From NCBI GenBank assembly GCA_964613055.1, contig CAZTGD010000005.1, positions 11,555 through 75,554 of the forward strand: a DNA stretch of 64,000 bases, given 5' to 3'. How positions within the stretch are numbered: the first letter of the stretch is position 1; each line of letters begins with the position of its first letter. The stretch is from an uncultured Caldisericales bacterium (GTDB lineage Bacteria > Caldisericota > Caldisericia > JAAYUI01). The notes beneath the pieces were generated by a model that searched no databases, had not been told where the DNA came from, and saw only the letters and a program-made list of their open reading frames with translations. The position numbers and the translations under genes were made by a program. Positions 8,801 through 19,455 of this stretch are shown here, piece after piece.

Positions 8801-9426
8801 ATTTGCTTGAATACGAAGCCTTTGTGTGTTTCTTTTCTGGCAAGTACAAACGTTCATTCAAACTCTTCGAACAGATTGATAATTCTTATTTACTAATGGA
8901 AAATGAAAGCATTAAAGTGAAACATATGAATATTTTATTTACCATGGTAGGTCTAATGGATCTTCTCGATTTAGATGTAAGGACAGCAGAGAAACTATAC
9001 GCAGAAGCAGTCAAACTAGAAAAAATTTTTAACACTGAGCATAATCATTTCGAATTAATGCTTGCAGAGGCACATATAAACTATATGAAATCTCTCAAAA
9101 GCAACGCTTTTGGCTCAGACAACTTCATGTCAAGCCCTTGGAGAATTGCATATAACAACTTGCTTGAATTACAGAAGTATGCTGAAAGGGACGAATGTGT
9201 TATTACAATGATTCCAACATACTCAACTCACTTGTTTGCCAGACTGGTGTTAAGAAGGATGAAATATGATAGAAATCTGGATAGTATTGAGAAAAGACAG
9301 ATATTCGATCAAGCGGTTTCGAACATCGAATGGTTGATGAAAAGGTACAAAACATGCGGATTCAAGTTGTTAAGGGATGACATTATCGGTATCAACAATG
9401 AACTTATCATAGAAATGGGTAAGTAA
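5803..9426 (+). CDS. Ser/Thr protein kinase fused to AAA/STAND-type ATPase and TPR-like repeats
   Basis: LGSGGMGRVY, HRDVKPDN, DFG, GTAMYMSPEQ; FVGR..QL and Walker A GESGLGKS; helical C-terminus. The ORF is open from 5689; 5803 gives a typical kinase N-terminus. Confidence 0.9.
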   Translation: MPIKDNIRIDSRFSLKYLLGSGGMGRVYLATDSENGNDVAIKFLSADNQNANKRFSREIETLSEINHKSVVQYICSGSTDDGYWYAMDHIPGPNITDWFRSKGILDYPLLSETMSHIASALSVVHEKGVVHRDVKPDNILMNGDLPVLVDFGIVHLQSSTQSTKLTHEGSIVGTAMYMSPEQVMGGIIDGRSDLYSLGTILYEILTSCHPFPAENFPRLVSKILRERPTRPSAHNPGIPKALEQITVRLLEKNPDLRYDSAEQLVESLNRFIHGGEVSKSKNQSPMKAYETKTIPFVGRTDQLEKLKTLFDSATIGNGGLAVITGESGLGKSRLLSEYKMMVLGGFGRFLECQKAGDSSVRPAISSVLNQLADYEIAYNPDFIKKHSHMIRSLSPKFANAIGIVSNPPNISDDDMIPKVIAQILCESFPEIPVVIAFEDRLDNITEKIIHECARKSIDSKVIVCCQSEADIPEFLNGIKRVSHIELQPFDVDDINQLAKSIIGRDLTTGEGEKIIKTSGGKPGIAIHLISSIKPFDETISLTSVPEYSHLLNQRVDELSNSAREIISTLSLFDKPIPLSILKPISRLKSTNFQKAFDSLESGNMIQVSNKGFELFCNIISKDVRDFVYNSLTEERFRELNQLIASTLSIYYSNSDDPDVLAMIGKHYHLAKKQDEYCKHLVKALEQLEQIDYLSSGFHYVEKLQEHIDVVDNTSIHKVLQWIIKAKSKTGDLTSFEEWVDRSNQIIINRSIDDVRKSKLFLNITEGYTQFMNHHKAVVYMQKAYKNKYLFDNRTKLHLEIMQARIYMLQLDLDKMSMAIGEIERLINLIDDDAMLLDKIQFFSIKGIYLFEKGNSGESIRAFKKALQISKDINHRENMLRVMTNLGNAYHRESEFDKSLYYRNQAYEIAKDMGITQIQIKLISALLATYTKIGDVDRLRKKMIDFKAVLDTVPFSNYHIGWTSHYTQLVCLEERFEDASEVIQRYKRETIEKNQPHLLRDLLEYEAFVCFFSGKYKRSFKLFEQIDNSYLLMENESIKVKHMNILFTMVGLMDLLDLDVRTAEKLYAEAVKLEKIFNTEHNHFELMLAEAHINYMKSLKSNAFGSDNFMSSPWRIAYNNLLELQKYAERDECVITMIPTYSTHLFARLVLRRMKYDRNLDSIEKRQIFDQAVSNIEWLMKRYKTCGFKLLRDDIIGINNELIIEMGK

Positions 9427-9596
9427 AGATTGCAATGTTCCCTTAAAGGGCTAGAATATTTGTATTCATGAAAGGAGGTAGTAACACATCACCTTTCTTG
9501 TATGTAACTTGACAATCCATACATTGTGGCTGAACGGTGGTAGCTCCCCTGTGTTGAAAAATGAGTTAGTTAGACAAGCAAAGTTCGATTAGAACA

Positions 9597-9714
9597 TTAC
9601 TTCTGTCTTAGAGTTCGAATATGTTTACGGACGACTGTGCCGTCAGCTCTTACGTATTCATCGACTATAACTAGCTCCAAATTCAGTGATTTTAGATCAA
9701 GTTGTTTTGCTCAT
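9597..9714 (-). pseudogene. small ORF with one extra base after codon 3 (restored: MSKQLDLKSLNLELVIVDEYVRADGTVVRKHIRTLRQK)
   Basis: SD AGGAGGAGG 8 nt before ATG 9714. Frame 0 stops after 5 codons; the +1 frame is open to TAA at 9597. The span is 118 nt, i.e. 39 codons plus 1. Confidence 0.45.
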
Positions 9715-9763
9715 ATTAGCGCCTCCTCCTTACATGGGGGGGGTTAGCCACCTCCATCATGTA

Positions 9764-9792
9764 TTATAATACAGCCAATAAAGGTGTGCAAA
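9764..9792 (-). promoter_or_regulatory. sigma70-type promoter with overlapping palindrome
   Basis: Minus strand TTGCAC-N17-TATAAT. The perfect 14-bp palindrome TGTATTATAATACA (9760-9773) covers the -10 box. Confidence 0.55.
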
Positions 9793-9839
9793 TGCTAGTT
9801 TATCGGCACTTTGTATCCCAACTCTGTATTTATAGTTGT

Positions 9840-12800
9840 TTACTGTTTCAAAGAGTCTTCAACAATCTGTATTTCTTCTGGTGTAAGCTCATAGAGTTCA
9901 TATACCAAATCATCAATCATTTTATCTGTCATTTCTATTTGTCTGTTTAACAGGTCTTTTTCATGTGAAGTCTTTGTTTTAGCAAGTTGTTTGTTTAGCT
10001 CAAGCATAGTTTCTACAAGTTGCACAATTTTGTCGTGTTTTTTCTTTTCGTTTGGGCTTTTGAGGTCGAGGATTTTGATTGGGATACTTTTAAGATACGT
10101 TGTCTTGTAAATATAATACCCTCCGGCTTTTGGGACTGTAGATTTTTTATAATAAAACTCAACAAGCTTAGAATTTAGGACACCTAAAACAAAAGGCATC
10201 GAGTAAACTTCTGAAGGTTTTAAAATAATCCCACATGTCGTATCTCCATACAGACAACCATCTTCAGCAACAGAGAATCTATTACAATCTGCCATCTCTG
10301 GTACGACAATCTTTTTTCCTGAGATTACATCAAATTTTCTTGGACACCACAATTCATACCATTTCTTTTTTGATTTTTTAAAATATTCTCTTCCATCAAG
10401 ATCTTTTCTTCTGGCTGACAAATAATTGTAAATATTTTTATATCCTTGTAGTTCTTCTTCAGATAAAAAAATTGTTTTATCATCAGAAAACTTGTATGGG
10501 TAAATAATGTGATCTTCTACATCACCAATATGGTATCTCTGAATATTTTTTCCTCTCAACTGTGGAAATATAATTGATTCTTCTAGCAACTTATCTCTTA
10601 TTTCTTGTTTTGAGATGACAAAAACTGAATTGTTCCCAGAAACAATACCCTCAGAAATTGCCTTTGTAATAACATCAAGTTTTATGGAATTCTTTCTCAT
10701 TTTTTCAAGTAACTCATTATGCTTTTTCGGTCTAATCACCCAAACATCAGATGAAAGGGAATTTTGATTTCCATGGATAGACCTTGAGTTTAGGCTTCTC
10801 ACTCTGTAGTTGAATTTTAGATTAGAATCAATTGTTTTACATTTTTGAAAGATAAAAATTCCAGTATAATTTGTTGCACCTTTGAAAACTTGAACATCTT
10901 CGAAATCACATATACTTTCAATCTGAACATTTTCTAAAAGATATTTTCTTATATCTTTTCCATGTGTCCGTTTCATAAAATTTGTTGGACAAATAAAACC
11001 GAACTCCCCATCATTATCCAGAAGGTCTACCGATCTTTCAATAAATGGAATATACAGATCAAATCTACCTTTTGCAGACTTATACACAAGTGTTAGGTGT
11101 TTTTTTACATCTTTAAATCCATGAAAACCTAAATACGGTGGATTACCAATCACAGCGTCAAAACCATAACCTTTTTCAAGCTCTCGAGAGGGAGATTCCA
11201 AATCAAGTTTGGAATGACGTGAGTTTTTCCATTTGATGATTTTTGGAAACTCTTTATCCCAATCAAAAGCATTGATTTTTCTCAAATGATCTAAATCATT
11301 TCTCTTGACAGGGTTTAGATCGTAGAAATCACTTTCAATAAGGCTGTTACCACACTTGATGTTTTCACCGAGGTCGGGTAATGCTCTTTTCATTCCTAGG
11401 TCTGGGCTGTTTTCCTCTTCCAGCACTTTTAATAAAAGGTTTAGCTTTGCCACTTCCACCGCTTGTGTGTCTATGTCTACGCCATAGATATTATTCAAAA
11501 GAATTTCTTTTTTCTTTTCGGTTGAGAGTCTCCAACCGCCTTTTATTTCATAGATTGGTTGATTCTTTTTCTTTGCATATTTTTCTGGATCATTATTACT
11601 GTAGTAGTCAAGATGCCAGTCAATAAGATGTTGGAATGCTCCGAGTAAAAATGAACCTGAACCACAAGCTGGGTCAAGAATCTTTAATTTTGAGGCTTGT
11701 TTTGGTGTTTTCCCTTCAAGCAATTTACCAACAGTGTTGCTAACGATGTAATCAACAATGTATTTTGGCGTATAATAAACACCTCCAGCTTTCCTAACCT
11801 CTGGTTTTTCCTCAATTGTTGCTTGATGTGAATCATCTAATGTGATTACCCTTCCCAAAAATTTTTCATAGACATGACCAAGAATATCCACAGGTAGTAT
11901 TGAAAAATCGAAATTATAATATGGAGGGTAAAGATTATCGATTATCTCTTTTAGAACCGTGTCGTCAATTTTAATATTTTTTGAGTAATTATCAAAATCT
12001 GGTCTTCCATCCTCTTTTTTAAAATGAAACAAGCCTGAGTTATATTTTGTATCAGCATGATCGTAGATAGCTATGAGTTTCGAGTAAACATTTTTACCCT
12101 TCATAGCTTCATCAAGTTTAAACTCTTTTCTATTCTCAATCCCTCTATCTTCAGCAATTCTCAGGAACAGGATTCTATCAATAGTTCTTTGTACAACACT
12201 GTTTAGAAGGTAAACATCAAGACCTTTGTTTTTAAGTGCAATGTTTGTTGCTAGTTTTTCTCTCCAACCTTCTATCATTTTCAAAAGTGTTTCATCAACA
12301 GGTTCTCTTTTCCCTTTGACTAGGTGCTGATAGTCATCAAGTAATTTATCCAAAGAACCTCTCGCTACATTCTCACGTCCTAGATAGCCTTCAATCTCAT
12401 CCCATTTTTTTATGTAATCCTCAAAGTGGTATTTCCTTAATAATCCAACATGCGGTCTATCTGACTTATCTTTTGGCTGAACACGTACATCATATAAACT
12501 GAGATACTCAAAATTTGATAAGATCGAAACGTATATCGTATCATTGTTCCACCCATAACGTCTAAGCTGATATGCAGAATCTTTATCATCTAAAATATTT
12601 ACTGATGGCTTTTTTGTTTCAAGAAAAAAAGCTGGAGCTCCGCCAATTCTGAACAAATAATCGGGTTTTTTTGTCCCAGAACCTTGCATACGCTGGCTAT
12701 ACTGCTGTTCAACATCTCTGTATCTCTCAGGTTTTCCATCCTTATTTGAAATATCCCAACCAAGTGCTTCAAACAAAGGATCAATAAAATCTGTACAAAG

Positions 12801-12890
12801 TGATGTTTCTTTATAACTGGTTTCTTTGTAAGTATCGATGTAGTTTCTAAATGTAGCGACACGTTCAACAACAGTCTTTGGTATGCTCAT
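9840..12890 (-). CDS. Type IIG restriction-modification enzyme (nuclease + N6-adenine MTase + TaqI-like TRD)
   Basis: N-terminal PDY...LETK (PD-(D/E)xK), GGVYYTP, motif I DPACGSGSFL, motif IV GNPPY, C-terminal specificity region. Confidence 0.92.
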   Translation of the reverse strand: MSIPKTVVERVATFRNYIDTYKETSYKETSLCTDFIDPLFEALGWDISNKDGKPERYRDVEQQYSQRMQGSGTKKPDYLFRIGGAPAFFLETKKPSVNILDDKDSAYQLRRYGWNNDTIYVSILSNFEYLSLYDVRVQPKDKSDRPHVGLLRKYHFEDYIKKWDEIEGYLGRENVARGSLDKLLDDYQHLVKGKREPVDETLLKMIEGWREKLATNIALKNKGLDVYLLNSVVQRTIDRILFLRIAEDRGIENRKEFKLDEAMKGKNVYSKLIAIYDHADTKYNSGLFHFKKEDGRPDFDNYSKNIKIDDTVLKEIIDNLYPPYYNFDFSILPVDILGHVYEKFLGRVITLDDSHQATIEEKPEVRKAGGVYYTPKYIVDYIVSNTVGKLLEGKTPKQASKLKILDPACGSGSFLLGAFQHLIDWHLDYYSNNDPEKYAKKKNQPIYEIKGGWRLSTEKKKEILLNNIYGVDIDTQAVEVAKLNLLLKVLEEENSPDLGMKRALPDLGENIKCGNSLIESDFYDLNPVKRNDLDHLRKINAFDWDKEFPKIIKWKNSRHSKLDLESPSRELEKGYGFDAVIGNPPYLGFHGFKDVKKHLTLVYKSAKGRFDLYIPFIERSVDLLDNDGEFGFICPTNFMKRTHGKDIRKYLLENVQIESICDFEDVQVFKGATNYTGIFIFQKCKTIDSNLKFNYRVRSLNSRSIHGNQNSLSSDVWVIRPKKHNELLEKMRKNSIKLDVITKAISEGIVSGNNSVFVISKQEIRDKLLEESIIFPQLRGKNIQRYHIGDVEDHIIYPYKFSDDKTIFLSEEELQGYKNIYNYLSARRKDLDGREYFKKSKKKWYELWCPRKFDVISGKKIVVPEMADCNRFSVAEDGCLYGDTTCGIILKPSEVYSMPFVLGVLNSKLVEFYYKKSTVPKAGGYYIYKTTYLKSIPIKILDLKSPNEKKKHDKIVQLVETMLELNKQLAKTKTSHEKDLLNRQIEMTDKMIDDLVYELYELTPEEIQIVEDSLKQ

Positions 12891-12996
12891 CTGAACTCCT
12901 AGCCTCTAAATAATTACCATTCACACATCAAATCATCTATTCTAGTGTAATACGTCTTAATAGCTTTGATAGCTGGTTTAAGTTGTAGGTTTTTAC

Positions 12997-13539
12997 TCAC
13001 GCACACACCATCCTCTTCAGCATATCACCAAAGATGAAAGCAGGTTTCCTTACAGGGGTTTTCTTTGACTTGGCTCTTGGTTTGTTGCCGTGGTGTTCAT
13101 TATCCTTTTTTGGCTGTCCACCGACATAGGCTTCATCCATTTCAACAATACCCCTTAAAAGGCTTTTATCAGGTTCAAGTAATGCTTTTCTAATCTGAAC
13201 CGATATTCTGTAGCCTGTCTTAACAGTAACACCGATATCCCTTGAAAGTTGACGGCTAGATATAGACTTCTTTGCGTTGGCAATAAGGAATATAGCCATA
13301 AACCATTTGGGTAAAGGTAAACGAGTGTGATGAAACATCGTTTTAGTAAGTACCGTGAATGACTTATGACAGTCCTTACACTGCCAACGTTTGGTGGTTC
13401 TTGAAGGGTCGTGATGTGTTGTTGTGGAATAAGAACCGCAATAAGGACAGTAGACACCCTTTGCAAACCTTATTGCTTCAAGCTTTTCTACACATTTTTC
13501 GTGTGTCCCGAATTGGTTTGTTATGTCTAATAAGTTCAT
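12997..13539 (-). pseudogene. IS1595-family transposase with internal deletion
   Basis: Zn ribbon CPYC...QCKDC, HTH (SSRQLSRDIGVT..T.YR), VEMDEAYVGG and KTPV, then directly a C-terminal-like tail. The remaining DDE residues are absent. Confidence 0.85.
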
Positions 13540-13611: not shown

Positions 13612-13639
13612 TTGATATTCATATTATCGATGTTATTAT
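13612..13639 (+). promoter_or_regulatory. candidate promoter of the leader/ABC/selD operon
   Basis: TTGATA-N16-TATTAT with TGn extended -10. Confidence 0.45.
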
Positions 13640-13664
13640 GTTTGTCAGTATGAAGGAGGACCAA

Positions 13665-13766
13665 GTGTCTAAACAGAGATCACTTTGAGCTTGTAGAGAC
13701 GGGCAGTTAGCCTGTCAGGTTCAGGTGATCTACCGCTTCAAGCCGATCACCTGAGAATTCAAATAG
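13665..13766 (+). CDS. putative selenocysteine-containing leader peptide MSKQRSL-U-ACRDGQLACQVQVIYRFKPIT-U-EFK
   Basis: SD AAGGAGG at 13653-13659, GTG at 13665, in-frame TGA at 13686 and 13752, TAG at 13764. SECIS-like hairpin loops start 16 nt after each TGA. Confidence 0.6.
13698..13716 (+). promoter_or_regulatory. bacterial SECIS-like hairpin of leader UGA1
   Basis: Stem GACGGGC/GCCTGTC, loop AGTTA with G at position 2, loop 16 nt after the UGA. A lower stem 13686-13692/13717-13723 can include the UGA. Confidence 0.6.
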
Positions 13767-13779
13767 ACTTAGGAGGTCT
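13765..13779 (+). promoter_or_regulatory. SD-sequestering hairpin, possible second SECIS
   Basis: AGACTT-AGG-AGGTCT contains the AGGAGG SD of the gene at 13783. Its loop begins 16 nt after UGA2. Confidence 0.5.
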
Positions 13780-13782
13780 GAT

Positions 13783-14937
13783 ATGAAGCGATTTGTTGTG
13801 TTTACTCTTTTAGTTGTGTTGTCTTTTGGGTTGTTTGTCTCGTGTGGTGGAGAAGCTACAACTGATAATTCTAATAATGATTTGAATGAACAACTGCCGT
13901 TACTGAAGGTAGGTCACGTTAACCAGGATCATCACCTTGCTCTCTATGTTGCGGCATTGAAGGGTGATTTCTTTAAAAAAGACGGCGTCTGGATGACTGA
14001 GATTAAACCCAAGGAAAGATACACCCTGCACACCAATGATGGTCCGATTGCTGAGATTCAGTTGATTGTAACCAAGGGCGGAGCTGAGATGCCAAACAAC
14101 CTGTTGGCTGGACTGTTTGATATTGGTTTTGGTGGTCTTCCTGCAGTAATGGGTGTTGTCGACAAAGGCAAGGATGTTCGTGTCTTGATGCCACTTCAAA
14201 ATGAAGGAGATCAGTTGATCGTTGAAAAAGAGATGCCCGTTGAAAACTGGGATGAATTTGTTGAATACGTCAAGAACTCCGATGAACAAATTGTTTTAGG
14301 CTACAAAGCACCTACTGCCGTGCAGTATATAATTGCGCAAAAAGCATTCTCTGAAGTAGGCATATCATACACAGAAGATCCAACTGATACTGAAGCAATG
14401 GTTTTATGGGTTAACCAAAAGGGTCAGAAGAATATGACTTCGAACCTAGCCGCTGGCCAGATTGACGGTTTTGTGGCAAACCAACCCACTCCAGCTCAAG
14501 CAATCATATCAGATGTAGGCAAATTCATCACAGAGTTAACCGTCTTACCGCCCGAAGGTATGTGGGCACAACACCCATGTTGTGTGGTCTGCAGTAACGA
14601 GAGGGTAAAGACAGAGCACCCAGAAGCGGTAAAACAGTTTCTCAAGCTCATCATGCTTGCCACTGATCATATCAATGATGATATGAATGATGCCATTAAT
14701 ACTGCTTATGAATTCCTTGGACAAAAAGAGGGTGTTGAAGATCTGTCAATTCCAACCGTTTCTTTCAGTAATGAAGACGACGAAATCTGGAGAGGTGGAT
14801 TGGTTACCTGGGTTAATGTCATGAATGAGATAGGCAAGTACAGTGGAGACCTAATGGGTGTAAACGATGAAACCGCTGTTGATATGTGTGTTGACTTCAC
14901 ATTTCTGGAAGAGCTTAAAAAGGAGCTTGGAAAATAG
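13783..14937 (+). CDS. NitT/TauT-family ABC transporter substrate-binding lipoprotein
   Basis: Lipobox FVSC, AGLFDIGFGG, IDGFVANQP and HPCC motifs; SD AGGAGG. Confidence 0.9.
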   Translation: MKRFVVFTLLVVLSFGLFVSCGGEATTDNSNNDLNEQLPLLKVGHVNQDHHLALYVAALKGDFFKKDGVWMTEIKPKERYTLHTNDGPIAEIQLIVTKGGAEMPNNLLAGLFDIGFGGLPAVMGVVDKGKDVRVLMPLQNEGDQLIVEKEMPVENWDEFVEYVKNSDEQIVLGYKAPTAVQYIIAQKAFSEVGISYTEDPTDTEAMVLWVNQKGQKNMTSNLAAGQIDGFVANQPTPAQAIISDVGKFITELTVLPPEGMWAQHPCCVVCSNERVKTEHPEAVKQFLKLIMLATDHINDDMNDAINTAYEFLGQKEGVEDLSIPTVSFSNEDDEIWRGGLVTWVNVMNEIGKYSGDLMGVNDETAVDMCVDFTFLEELKKELGK

Positions 14938-15779
14938 ACAGGGAAAGACTTAAAACAATCATATGGAGTATTGCAGGTGCGATAATCTTACCTGCAATAC
15001 TCTTCCTTGTGTGGGATTATTCAGCAATGAGGATGGGATCATCGACACTTCTTCCAAGGGTTGGCGATGTATTCGATGTATTGATTCATCCAACACGTGA
15101 TCTTATCAGACAAGGATCCCTTCTGTATCATGTGTATATCTCTTCGATTCGTGTTCTAACTGGTTTTCTAATAGGTTCCCTCCTTGCGGTAATAATCGGT
15201 ATGATGATGGGCATGTGGGAAAGAGTAAGGGATTTTATCACTCCGTTTATTGAACTAATGAGACCACTTTGCCCAGTAGCTTGGATACCATTCGCTATCA
15301 TCATCTTTGGTGGTTCGACACTATCGAATGTCTTTGGTTATAGATTCACTGAGAGCATACTAGACTACATACAGACTGCTCAGTTGTTCATAATTGCTTG
15401 GGGTGCTTTCTTTCCCGTATTGATAAACACCATTGATGGCGTAATGGGTGTTAGAAAAATATGGATTGAAACAGCAAAAACAATGAGTGCCGCACCTCAC
15501 CAGATATGGGCAAAGGTGATACTGCCGGGAAGCTTCCCAAGGATTTTAACTGGGCTGAAGGTAGGACTTGGCATCTCATGGATGGTAGTTATAGCTGCAG
15601 AGATGTTCCCAGGACCTCCAGGTGGTATTGGATACTTGATGATGGAGGCGTATGCCCAAACTGAAATACACATCCTTGCGGCAGGATTGATAGCCGTTGG
15701 ATTGGTGGGTGCATTGCTCAATGGTATCCTAAGTGCAATATACCGCATTTTTGCTAACTGGCAGGCAAAGGAGCGCTGA
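14934..15779 (+). CDS. NitT/TauT-family ABC permease (probable ATA start at 14934; first conventional start GTG 15009)
   Basis: RPLCPVAW, EAA-like ETAKTMSA, PGSFPRILTGLKVGLG.SW.VVIAAE. The frame is open upstream of 15009 and encodes a plausible N-terminal TM helix. Confidence 0.88.
   Translation: MDRERLKTIIWSIAGAIILPAILFLVWDYSAMRMGSSTLLPRVGDVFDVLIHPTRDLIRQGSLLYHVYISSIRVLTGFLIGSLLAVIIGMMMGMWERVRDFITPFIELMRPLCPVAWIPFAIIIFGGSTLSNVFGYRFTESILDYIQTAQLFIIAWGAFFPVLINTIDGVMGVRKIWIETAKTMSAAPHQIWAKVILPGSFPRILTGLKVGLGISWMVVIAAEMFPGPPGGIGYLMMEAYAQTEIHILAAGLIAVGLVGALLNGILSAIYRIFANWQAKER
14966..15002. repeat. perfect 13-bp inverted repeat just after the SBP stop codon
   Basis: GAGTATTGCAGGT-N11-ACCTGCAATACTC; no U-tract. 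Confidence 0.75.
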
Positions 15780-15781
15780 TT

Positions 15782-16573
15782 ATGGTAAAGATAAGTGGTG
15801 TATTCAAGCGTTTCGACGAAACCGAGGTGCTGAAGAATATTAACCTCAAGTTTCTACCTGGTGAGTTCAATTGTCTACTCGGTCCAACTGGATGTGGGAA
15901 AACCACTCTTTTGAGGATTATTGCAGGGTTGCTCAAACCTGATCTGGGTGTTGTAAAGATTGATAAACCGACAATATCAATGATCTTTCAACAGCAAACG
16001 CTATTCCCGTGGAGGAATGCACTTTCAAATGTGTGTCTTCCTCTCGAGTTTATGGGCTATCCAAAGAAAGAGCGAATTGAGATGGCCTACAGACGGCTAG
16101 AAGAGGTAGGGATGGTTGACCAAGCCAGAAAGAAAGTATTCCATTTATCTGGTGGTATGCAACAGCGTGTACAGATAGCAAGAGCGTTGGTATCAAACCC
16201 GAGTGTCTTGCTTGCTGATGAACCCTTCGGAGCGCTCGATGAAAAAACAAGATATAACCTCCAACGTCAGATTCGAGATGTCGCAACTCGCAACAATATG
16301 AGTGTGATCTTTGTTACTCACAACGTCTCTGAGGCTATTTATCTTGGTGATCGCATCGTTGTCATCGGTAACCATCGGGTGAAAGCAGACTATGACCTCA
16401 CGGAACCACACCCAAGAAACAGAATCTCAGAGTGGTTTTCTGATCGAATTATTGAAGTTCGACAAGTGTTTGAGAACCTGATCATCTCGAATGAAGCAAA
16501 TGATGAAATTGAGAATGTAGAAAGAGATGATTTTAAGACAGTTAAAATGGATGTGCAAAATGAAGATGAATAA
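15782..16573 (+). CDS. NitT/TauT-family ABC ATP-binding protein
   Basis: Walker A GPTGCGKTT, signature LSGGMQQR, Walker B LLADEPFGALD, H-loop VTH. Confidence 0.95.
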   Translation: MVKISGVFKRFDETEVLKNINLKFLPGEFNCLLGPTGCGKTTLLRIIAGLLKPDLGVVKIDKPTISMIFQQQTLFPWRNALSNVCLPLEFMGYPKKERIEMAYRRLEEVGMVDQARKKVFHLSGGMQQRVQIARALVSNPSVLLADEPFGALDEKTRYNLQRQIRDVATRNNMSVIFVTHNVSEAIYLGDRIVVIGNHRVKADYDLTEPHPRNRISEWFSDRIIEVRQVFENLIISNEANDEIENVERDDFKTVKMDVQNEDE

Positions 16574-17600
16574 AGAGGAGGAGTTCCGACTGACAAAGTT
16601 TGCCGGTTGTGCTGGTTGAGAAAGCAAGTGGGGGCCGGGTGCTCTCAAAGAACTCCTTCGTGATCTACCCAGATTTGATTCTAAGGATTTGATAACACGC
16701 GATGTCACAAAAGCAGATGCTGTTGTATTCAGGTTGGACAAAGATCGATATGGCATCTACTCAGTCGATGTATTCTCACCAATAGTCGAAGACCCAGAGT
16801 CATTTGGCAGAGTAGTCTTTGCCAACAGTATTTCTGACATATGTGCAATGGGCGGTAAACCTTTGGTTGCTTTGAACGTGTGTATGTTTCCCCTTCAGGT
16901 ACCCGTTGACAAACTGAATAGCATACTCCTCGGTGCATCAAAGGCCGCAATTGAGAATGGTGTGTTCATCGCTGGTGGTCACACCACAAAGAATGACGAG
17001 CTGCATTATGGGTTGTCTGTGTTTGGCGAATGCAAACCGGAAAATCTGAGAATGGCGAATAATGCTCGGGATGGTGATCACATAATCCTTACAAAAGCAA
17101 TAGGTACGGGCATCATGTTTGCCGCTAAAGACAAGGTGGATAGTTTGGAATGGGACAGTGCAGTGCAATCCATGATGCAAACGTCTATCAAAGCATCAGA
17201 AATTTTGACCCACTTTGGATGCCGATGTAGCACTGATATAACGGGTTTTGGTCTTGTCCCACACCTGTTTGAGGTGTTGGAGGAATCAAAGCTTTCAGCG
17301 GATATCATTCCAGAGAATATACCTTTACTGCCAGGTGTTTTTGACTTGGCTAATATATATCTCTGCCCTGTTCTATCTGATAACATGGGATTGGTAGGTA
17401 ACAATTTCATTGCAGGTGATTCAGACCCGAGGTGGATGAATATCTGTTTTGATGCGCAGACCTCAGGAGGTTTACTCGCTTTTCTCTCGCCGGACAAATC
17501 AGATGAGTGTGTCATAGAGCTTAAAAAGGCAGGATATCCTGCAAGTGTAATTGGAAGTGTGTCAAAAGGCAAACCTCAAGTTAGATTGGTTACAAAATAA
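16566..17600 (+). CDS. selD: selenide, water dikinase; itself a selenoprotein (Sec at codon 18)
   Basis: ATG 16566 gives MNKEEEFRLTKFAGCAG-U(TGA 16617)-ESKWGP, in frame with the 16689 ORF. SelD motifs ANSISDICAMGG, GGHT, TDITGFGL and DAQTSGGLL are present. Confidence 0.93.
16630..16646 (+). promoter_or_regulatory. bacterial SECIS element of selD
   Basis: Stem GGGGGC/GCTCTC, loop CGGGT with G at position 2, loop 16 nt after the UGA. Confidence 0.7.

Positions 17601-17916: not shown

Positions 17917-19455
<1,539 letters not shown>

Follow-up and report, generated by a model that had tools for sequence, protein, structure and literature searches.

A candidate ABC importer for selenium encoded in one operon with selD in Caldisericia, preceded by a leader RNA that may sense selenium status

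What does an ATP-binding cassette (ABC) transporter import when its last gene runs into selD, the gene for selenide, water dikinase? The question is raised by an operon of an uncultured Caldisericales bacterium, found in a stretch of 64,000 nt (contig CAZTGD010000005.1 of assembly GCA_964613055.1, positions 11,555 to 75,554; the whole stretch is called the window hereafter), in which genes for a substrate-binding protein (SBP), a permease, an ATPase and SelD follow one another. An interpretation made earlier from the letters of this DNA (the sequence-only reading) had proposed a dedicated selenium importer, and had called specific bacterial selenium importers poorly defined, which agrees with reviews of 2022 and 2026 stating that no specific, high-affinity prokaryotic selenium transport system is known. 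We consider the operon to encode a candidate dedicated ABC importer that takes up selenium for the synthesis of selenophosphate, with a probability of roughly 0.6. This reading is supported by the linkage to sel genes, by the signature of the SBP family and, as an independent line, by a leader RNA that carries a UGA codon and a hairpin resembling a selenocysteine insertion sequence (SECIS); the leader is a feature new here, absent from the earlier account.

The four genes lie on the forward strand and are contiguous or overlapping, as had been described. The SBP gene (13783-14937) encodes 384 aa, a probable lipoprotein (LFVSC signal) with a type II periplasmic binding protein fold of the NMT1/SsuA class. 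The permease gene (14934-15779; BPD_transp_1) has a probable AUA start that overlaps the TAG stop of the SBP gene, and a gap of 2 nt separates its own stop (15777-15779) from the ATG at 15782 of the ATPase gene (15782-16573; Pfam ABC_tran; TAA stop at 16571-16573). The start of selD (16560-17600) lies inside the ATPase gene, as the sequence-only reading had it, whether the ATG at 16566 or a second in-frame ATG at 16560 is used (overlap of 8 or 14 nt, respectively). As for the permease, no ATG, GTG or TTG is found before the GTG at 15009, though a conserved transmembrane segment is encoded upstream in frame (region 14919-15011), and four Caldisericia loci share a conserved ATA 8 nt past AAGGAG that overlaps or abuts the SBP stop; in the window this is the ATA at 14934, with which the permease probably starts. 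In more distant relatives (L087 and L086) the permease has a canonical start and lies in a different frame relative to the SBP gene.

Translated from 16566 to 17600, selD gives an unbroken SelD with a sole in-frame TGA at 16617-16619 (MNKEEEFRLTKFAGCAG, then the TGA, then ESKWGPG; the residues just before the TGA read FAGCAG). Because this single TGA lies within an otherwise continuous SelD, selD is a selenoprotein gene, with selenocysteine (Sec) in the sequence GCAG-U-ESK; open reading frame (ORF) calling broke the gene at the Sec codon and returned only the C-terminal ORF (16689-17600). The protein scores 260.4 bits with TIGR00476 (cutoff 125), and the Pfam domains AIRS and AIRS_C are both present. 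In its glycine-rich N-terminal loop Sec is followed by Lys three residues on, and the Sec or Cys with Lys in this loop is what Cys17 and Lys20 of Escherichia coli SelD lead one to expect. Sec-type SelD N-termini are also found in three relatives (L001, L002 and L132). A SECIS hairpin of selD is predicted at 16629-16647 on the forward strand (7 bp, CGGGU loop, 9 nt 3' of the UGA).

To see how the transporter is placed in other genomes, we followed the SBP family, whose members closest to the window are from Caldisericia metagenome-assembled genomes (MAGs). A profile search gave 109 relatives, and an exhaustive search among 1.84 billion representatives returned 102 at E<=1e-30 and 300 at E<=1e-10; judged by these numbers the family is small and discrete. 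A metagenome scan yielded only 3 loci. We used 80 loci, one per species-level genome, from Caldisericia, WOR-3, Planctomycetota, Anaerolineales, Verrucomicrobiota, Calditrichota, Omnitrophota, Lentisphaerae and others (many lie on short contigs, and 24 have full flanks), and located selD, selA and selB by tblastn within 10 kb. At least one sel gene was found within this distance in 37 of the 80 loci, as compared to a chance expectation of about 1-3 linked loci (binomial P ~3e-32 at a generous chance rate of 3.5%), and in 14 of the 24 with full flanks; in 10 of the 80 a sel gene lies directly downstream on the same strand. The sequence-only reading had named beforehand a linkage to selD that is not conserved as what would speak against it; the linkage is conserved, and in orders that differ between phyla.

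At least seven different gene orders are seen among the linked loci. In Caldisericia the ABC genes are followed by an overlapping selD, in Planctomycetales by selA and selB, and in WOR-3 selD lies upstream of the SBP gene. In Pirellulales, Phycisphaerae and Sedimentisphaerales, selA and selB run divergently from a gene cluster that consists of an unknown gene, an outer-membrane barrel gene, the SBP, permease and ATPase genes, then either a PNPOx gene or a set of genes for a methyltransferase, two double-cubane cluster proteins (DCCPs), a DCCP-like protein and an activase, and finally a gene for a SelD-CMD fusion. In Anaerolineales selD, selB and selA stand on one side (selB and selA on the opposite strand) and an AlgE-type porin gene followed by the ABC genes on the other, and in a MAG of the PVC group the sel genes are downstream on the opposite strand. 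Since the arrangements differ between phyla, selection rather than inheritance of a single ancestral order is indicated. Unbiased clustering of all ORFs flanking the 80 loci gave SelD-CMD fusions (24 loci), SelB (20) and SelA (19) as the commonest non-transport neighbours, next to outer-membrane barrels of the Phenol_MetA_deg type (25 + 16 loci) and outer-membrane porins of the Alginate_exp type (10). The other neighbours are HGD-D proteins (14 + 8 loci), a S-adenosylmethionine (SAM) methyltransferase (11), PNPOx-like proteins (8), NapH-like proteins (8) and a BcrAD-type activase (7).

The SBP carries two motifs, GHVNQDHH (nt 13912-13935) and HPCC (nt 14572-14583, residues 264-267), the second of which had been pointed out before. 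HPCC is found in 81 of 81 genomic copies of the family; the first motif reads GHVGHDHH in 70 copies and GHVNQDHH in 4, those of the Caldisericia clade. Among 104 aligned SBPs, six positions never vary (V46, D49, H50, P265, C266 and C267), and H45, H48 and H264 hardly do. None of the 81 copies has a TGA in place of a motif Cys (the pair is CC, never C-TGA). The SBP matches Pfam NMT1_2 with 87.4 bits (cutoff 24.7), and in the NCBIfam scan only SsuA_fam and SaoX reached E<=0.01, with no match to the PhnD-like 'putative selenate ABC transporter' model.

Using the AlphaFold2 model of the SBP (pLDDT, the predicted local distance difference test score, of 93), Foldseek gave as top match 3UN6, a Staphylococcus aureus SBP crystallised with bound Zn (TM 0.86 on the target), followed by the regulatory domains of CmpC/NrtC and by TauA, SsuA, NrtA, CmpA and Thi5 (probability 1.0 for TauA, SsuA, NrtA and CmpA). 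In the sequence alignment HPCC lies over the CC of 3UN6 and over the CCCFC of Thi5/Thi13, and the His after strand 1 of 3UN6 aligns with H50; in contrast to 3UN6 (about 14% identity), the family of the window adds the GHVGHDHH cluster and the His-Pro before CC, and has Sec genes rather than a carbon monoxide dehydrogenase (CODH) as partners. According to the CODH literature, 3UN6-like SBPs adjoin clade B CODHs, carry a cargo that is not known, and in models hold a Zn coordinated by two Cys plus one or two His; they were first proposed as Ni importers, while the authors of a 2026 CODH paper doubt Ni and suggest that the metal is part of the site. His-Cys-Cys Zn sites favour S or Se ligands. Because of the conserved His, Asp and Cys residues and of the Zn-bound 3UN6 as the closest fold, the site of the SBP looks like a soft-ligand or metal-assisted one rather than a classical oxyanion pocket. 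In one homologue (P0012) the C-terminal half of the SBP, including HPCC, precedes the N-terminal half, so that this protein is tandem or permuted, or its short contig mis-assembled.

The permease has SaoP, a selenoprotein permease of the SAO system, as its best NCBIfam hit with 140.6 bits, under the cutoff of 295, and SaoA (174.8 bits, cutoff 360) and SaoX (29.6 bits, cutoff 300) are under their cutoffs as well (the three Sao models being NF040735, NF040733 and NF040729). For the ATPase, models of SaoA, TauB, PotA and PhnT2 score alike, all below cutoff. Among the models of characterised NitT/TauT members, no equivalog-level match of the transporter was obtained with ntrB (108.5 bits, cutoff 209), TauC (100.4, cutoff 342), SsuC (87.5, cutoff 347) or SsuA_fam (48.5, cutoff 163.5). 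The transporter is a member of the NitT/TauT superfamily by fold and architecture and the equivalog of no characterised member. NrtB and CmpB are the nearest solved permeases; where they have RTVPPLAW, the family has RPLCPxAW (RPLCPVAW in the window, Cys codon at nt 15270-15272), followed by an insertion of about 18 residues. The Cys of this motif is kept in 53 of 62 permease sequences, and the reading frame of the permease contains no in-frame TGA.

Upstream of the SBP gene we were able to identify a leader RNA with a mini-ORF and three hairpins, all on the forward strand. The mini-ORF (13653-13688) has a Shine-Dalgarno (SD) sequence AAGGAGG at 13653-13659, a GTG at 13665, the residues S-K-Q-R-S-L and a CUU-UGA end (TGA at 13686-13688). 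Hairpin 1 (13698-13716), which is SECIS-like, has a 7-bp stem and an AGUUA loop and starts 9 nt after the UGA; hairpin 2 (13720-13755) has 11 bp, 4 of which show compensatory changes; and hairpin 3 (13766-13778) encloses the SD of the SBP gene (GACUU-AGG-AGGUC) and has one compensatory change (GAC/GUC versus AAC/GUU). A promoter-like site at 13612-13639 on the same strand (TTGATA, 16 nt, TATTAT, TG-extended; a consensus match only, at 10 of 12 positions) would put the transcript start just 5' of the leader.

The same design is found in seven other distinct loci (SBP 51-83% identical to that of the window), plus near-duplicates. The mini-ORF always has an SD and 4-7 codons, ends in (R/K)-S-L or L-L with an invariant CUU-UGA, and is followed by G or A. 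Hairpin 1, seen in 8 distinct loci, starts 8-10 nt past the UGA, has a stem of 5-8 bp and contains GUU in every loop; 4 of its 7 pairs are compensatory, a score reached by 0 of 500 shuffles (seven sequences). Its form is that of a bacterial SECIS, in which a hairpin with a small apical loop containing G(U) starts about 10 nt 3' of an in-frame UGA. Over the whole leader (five sequences) the compensatory pairs number 9 of 23, and here too none of 500 shuffles reaches the observed score; the minimum free energy fold of 13690-13790 has z = -3.06. The covariance model made from seven sequences picked up an eighth, independent instance (L125, 51 bits) and otherwise matches once per Caldisericia genome, only at the transporter operon; model R1 matched nothing beyond the Caldisericia clade. 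A pattern scan of genome contigs for extra copies of the leader gave 34 hits, among which only the three known Caldisericia operons reached 54-58 bits and the rest (at most 35 bits) were at chance level. As strong matches occur only at known operons, the leader is not a dispersed regulon element. No Rfam family matches it.

The geometry of hairpin 1 (UGA, 9 nt, 7 bp, 5-nt loop) is that of the predicted SECIS of selD in the same operon. Beyond the UGA the frame could be read for 21 codons in five loci and for 8-11 in the others; in the five closest loci it ends in the 3' arm of hairpin 2 (TGA at 13752-13754 in the window), about 30 nt before the SBP start, and in the remaining ones just past hairpin 1. 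Read by eye, the sequences also show the 3' arm of hairpin 2 to be partly complementary to the real SD of the SBP gene. These features suggest that hairpin 1 may bind SelB and that the leader may sense selenium status; the response could be either activation by coupling or repression by release of an anti-SD. One prediction of Sec sensing was checked and came out as expected: AnMBR.bin236 (Caldisericia; L003/L008) keeps the transporter and its leader with no adjacent selD, and a Sec-type selD is present elsewhere on the same 2.17-Mb contig. In a WOR-3 locus (L035:6722-6868), two tandem ACU-UGA-GCC units with hairpins (GUU and GGUC loops) are found between selD and the SBP gene, at distances of 184 and 86 nt upstream of the latter, and may be a second, independent version of a UGA-SECIS leader.

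There is a known counterpart in the 5' untranslated region (UTR) of E. coli selAB, where a SECIS-like hairpin bound by SelB, GTP and Sec-tRNA represses selAB. Like hairpin 1 as proposed here, that element is a hairpin that ties a selenium-pathway operon to the status of Sec-tRNA(Sec). It differs in having no upstream ORF (uORF) or UGA and in lying 3 nt from the SD, whereas in the window the UGA of the mini-ORF stands 9 nt before hairpin 1, the hairpin 60-95 nt upstream of the transporter start, and two hairpins in between. A serious contender, which we put at somewhat under even odds, is a leader of an ordinary kind, either a structured 5' UTR or leader peptide with hairpins that sequester the ribosome-binding site, or a riboswitch that responds to an unknown ligand; the UGA would then simply stop translation, and hairpin 1 would be unrelated to SelB. 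Hairpins 2 and 3 alone could gate the ribosome-binding site, the length of the read-through frame is not conserved after the UGA, and most other phyla yielded no such leader. Against it stand that the stop is UGA in every instance, within an invariant CUUUGA, that hairpin 1 with its spacing, its stem and a GUU in every loop has the geometry predicted for the selD SECIS, and that the controlled gene is joined to selD in an operon; the tandem units of the WOR-3 locus and the precedent of the SelB-dependent selAB element also speak for Sec sensing.

Several other interpretations of leader elements were tried and dropped. Hairpin 2 is not followed by a U-tract, as an intrinsic terminator would be. 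CUU-UGA is the codon pair of the +1 frameshift site of prfB, but frameshifting seems unlikely, as the downstream +1 frames vary among the leaders and an SD-like stimulator is missing 3 nt upstream. Pairing of the hairpin 2 loop with the SBP start codon (6-7 nt in four loci) is missing in L008 and was not adopted, and a lower SECIS stem that includes the UGA forms in some sequences in differing registers and is not claimed.

As to the cargo, the sequence-only reading had suggested selenite, selenate or another selenium species, on the grounds that this class of ABC transporters imports oxyanions and sulfonates. Selenium as such is supported by the sel linkage, HPCC and the leader; selenate and selenite are not favoured, and the analogy to oxyanions and sulfonates is weak in view of the His/Asp/Cys site and the match to 3UN6. 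Our best guess is reduced or soft selenium (hydroselenide, or selenium bound to thiols or metal) rather than selenate, and we would rank the candidates as reduced inorganic selenium, then selenite, then organoselenium, then a cargo without selenium.

A number of observations weigh against a selenium importer or against a Sec-sensing leader. The evidence for the importer is genomic throughout. Planctomycetota contribute about half of the loci, and the 37 linked ones therefore do not count as independent events. Of the 24 loci with full flanks, 10 lack a sel gene within 10 kb, and some of these stand in metal-type contexts. One such locus (L005:5731-10889, the same as L010; 41% identity, candidate division LCP-89), with no sel genes nearby, has as neighbours an outer-membrane barrel, a DtxR-family repressor, CbiX, DUF2249, FmdE and a TonB-dependent receptor. 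A metal cation as cargo would be equally consistent with the Cys/His/Asp site and the match to 3UN6, and the apparent clustering of the conserved residues in the SBP cleft is deduced from alignment and secondary structure. The fold energy of the predicted selD SECIS is no better than that of shuffles (z = +1.45), which makes it a geometric prediction only. A generic scan for a uORF, a UGA and a hairpin was positive in 9 of 69 regions, as compared to about 5-6 in reverse-complement and shuffle controls, and thus shows no enrichment, and the leader is limited to one clade and one WOR-3 locus.

Among the rivals for the cargo, organic or organometal(loid) selenium (methylated selenides, selenoamino acids or an organometallic compound of the SAO type), processed in the cytoplasm before SelD, fares best, and we hold it to be improbable. 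In many Planctomycetota loci the ABC genes are separated from selD, on one strand, by genes for a methyltransferase, three DCCP-type subunits and an activase; DCCPs have been provisionally linked to selenium compounds, the best family match of the permease is SaoP, and SBPs of the NMT1 fold also bind thiamine, pyrimidines and pyrroloquinoline quinone. In the minimal operon of Caldisericia, however, the ATPase gene leads straight to selD with no processing enzyme, and the other SAO genes are missing, with all Sao models under their cutoffs.

A soft metal cation (Zn, Ni, Co, Fe or similar), the sel neighbours being explained by selenoenzymes that are metalloenzymes or by co-regulation, would account for 3UN6, crystallised with Zn, as top structural neighbour, for the invariance of D49, H50, C266 and C267, for the first proposal of Ni import by the CODH-linked SBPs, and for the DtxR-type repressor, CbiX and TonB-dependent receptor near L005. 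We regard it as quite improbable: the neighbours are the Sec machinery (selD, selA and selB) and not selenoenzymes or metallochaperones, the leader has a UGA and a SECIS-like hairpin, the permease is nearest to the small-anion and sulfonate carriers NrtB, CmpB, TauC and SsuC, and the authors of the 2026 CODH paper, who doubt Ni, suggest that the metal belongs to the site.

An ordinary NitT/TauT importer of a sulfur or nitrogen compound (sulfonate, thiosulfate, nitrate or pyrimidine) with selD next to it by accident would agree with the weak similarity to SsuA-family proteins, TauC, SsuC and NrtB and with the fold matches to TauA, SsuA and NrtA, but is very improbable, given that those models score far under their cutoffs, that the sel linkage recurs in different arrangements across phyla, that the His/Cys motifs of the family are missing from the oxyanion binders it resembles, and that the permease has Cys where NrtB and CmpB have Pro.

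With selenium import as the preferred reading, the system could work as follows. The surface lipoprotein would bind a selenium species in a cleft of conserved His and Asp residues (GHVxxDHH) and vicinal Cys residues (HPCC), which probably holds a Zn-like metal, as in Cys2-His sites of the 3UN6 type. A permease dimer, with the Cys of RPLCPxAW lining the translocation path, and the ATPase would move it inward, and SelD, translated from the overlapping start (with presumed coupling), would turn selenide to selenophosphate for Sec-tRNA and other uses of selenium. In diderm phyla the module has gained genes for an outer-membrane channel, often together with a methyltransferase and an ATP-dependent double-cubane reductase that would pre-process the imported selenium compound. 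In Caldisericia the fate of the ribosome at the UGA of the mini-ORF (Sec insertion versus termination) would report the availability of Sec-tRNA(Sec) and SelB, that is, selenium status, and the outcome would remodel the downstream hairpins around the ribosome-binding site of the SBP gene. Taken jointly, a high-affinity importer whose SBP captures reduced selenium on a Cys2-His(-Asp) metal site, a 'selenocysteine attenuator' that sets the expression of importer and selD, and a Planctomycetota importer feeding an ATP-driven double-cubane reductase that releases selenide for SelD make up a tentative scheme, doubtful as a whole.

The closest described system is the SAO transporter (SaoX/SaoB-SaoP-SaoA; Haft and Gwadz 2022/2023), likewise a NitT/TauT-like importer, from strict anaerobes; its SBP is an NMT1-fold lipoprotein with conserved CC motifs that converge on the binding pocket, and the transporter tends to be found together with selenium traits and NF040772 double-cubane reductases. 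The SAO permease has Sec or Cys at its gating position, and the SAO SBP is a selenoprotein of CU/CC type. In contrast to this system, no selenocysteine is encoded in the SBPs of the family or in the permease of the window, the conserved permease Cys appears to sit in a different motif, the neighbours are selD, selA and selB, and the cargo would be selenium instead of an organometallic fermentative substrate. Membership in the SAO system was considered and rejected, since all three Sao models are below cutoff and SaoB, SaoL, SaoC, SaoE, SaoT and SaoD are missing; none of these six was found among the neighbours in the window or among the neighbour clusters across the 80 loci. By these comparisons the transporter is a relative of the SAO transporter and not a member of it. 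NrtABCD/CmpABCD and TauABC/SsuABC share the three-component architecture and the folds, and differ in the permease (RxxPPLAW versus RPLCPxAW) and in the SBP site, which in the window is of Cys/His/Asp type. CmpA uses a bound Ca2+ to hold its anion, so that use of a metal is possible in this class of SBPs.

YedE/YedF, together with sulfate and phosphate permeases for selenium oxyanions, are the current candidate or known routes of selenium into prokaryotes, and YedE was likewise proposed from its sel neighbourhood. These belong to unrelated families, are not SBP-dependent ABC transporters with a thiol/imidazole site, and are non-specific or uncharacterised. A 2016 survey mentions an 'ABC transporter-related ATPase' close to orphan selD genes but specifies it no further, and in the literature we found no paper that describes the HPCC SBP family or its link to sel genes. 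The family is now a concrete candidate for a selenium importer, with a searchable signature (GHV[GN][HQ]DHH and HPCC in the SBP, RPLCPxAW in the permease), and it links three puzzles, namely the Cys/His SBPs of the 3UN6 type, the SAO transporter, and the double-cubane reductases that are near-exclusive to SelD-containing genomes. If true, it would explain how anaerobes scavenge trace selenium in sulfidic habitats and give the enigmatic DCCP family a physiological role, and the leader as proposed would be a compact genetic sensor of selenium.

In the loci of Planctomycetota and relatives, SelD itself is a three-part fusion in 24 cases (L085:13373-14962, L004:10955-12586 and 22 others), beginning with a Cys-rich stretch (CICDHRLPCPCDVFKEKNICSC), continuing with a Cys-type SelD and ending in an AhpD/CMD domain with CxxC. 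Six loci (L062, L066, L071, L079, L039 and L019) have a cassette between the ABC genes and selD on the same strand, which encodes a SAM methyltransferase with weak similarity to ArsM/DVU_1556, two NF040772-type proteins, a divergent third HGD-D protein and an activase of the acyl-CoA-dehydratase type; in L066, for example, SelD-CMD follows the activase. The HGD-D representative matches the double-cubane reductase model NF040772 with 419 bits (cutoff 350). According to Haft, this family occurs in SelD-containing genomes in 955 of 970 cases, and DCCPs have provisionally been tied to selenium compounds; the cassette is a possible physiological context for double-cubane proteins. Small Cys-rich proteins adjoin the transporter in WOR-3 loci (L026, about 9400-9940; cluster c22 in L028, L033, L034 and L041), of which one type is FtrB-like (104 aa, weak match to the 'FtrB family double-selenoprotein' model) and another is a CxxC-rich peptide ending in CCC.

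The neighbours of the operon in the window are a restriction-modification gene, a transposase fragment, a 16S rRNA gene and FeoB. Downstream, the complete 16S rRNA gene (17919-19455, reverse strand) lies 318 nt after selD and is convergent with it; 23S and 5S rRNA genes were not found in the 64 kb, so that in this genome the rRNA genes seem not to be linked. At gathering threshold, the only Rfam matches in the whole window are the 16S rRNA and one tRNA. The region 5' of the operon encodes an H+-pyrophosphatase, a phosphofructokinase (PFK) and a 1245-aa Ser/Thr kinase-AAA-TPR protein. Between the kinase gene and the operon, 9840-13539 on the reverse strand holds a type IIG restriction-methylase (Eco57I/MmeI-like, 1016 aa) and an IS1595-type transposase fragment. 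In L001 and L003, two relatives, the SBP leader comes directly after the kinase gene, and as the restriction-methylase and transposase are missing from these syntenic loci, they represent a low-GC insertion specific to the genome of the window.

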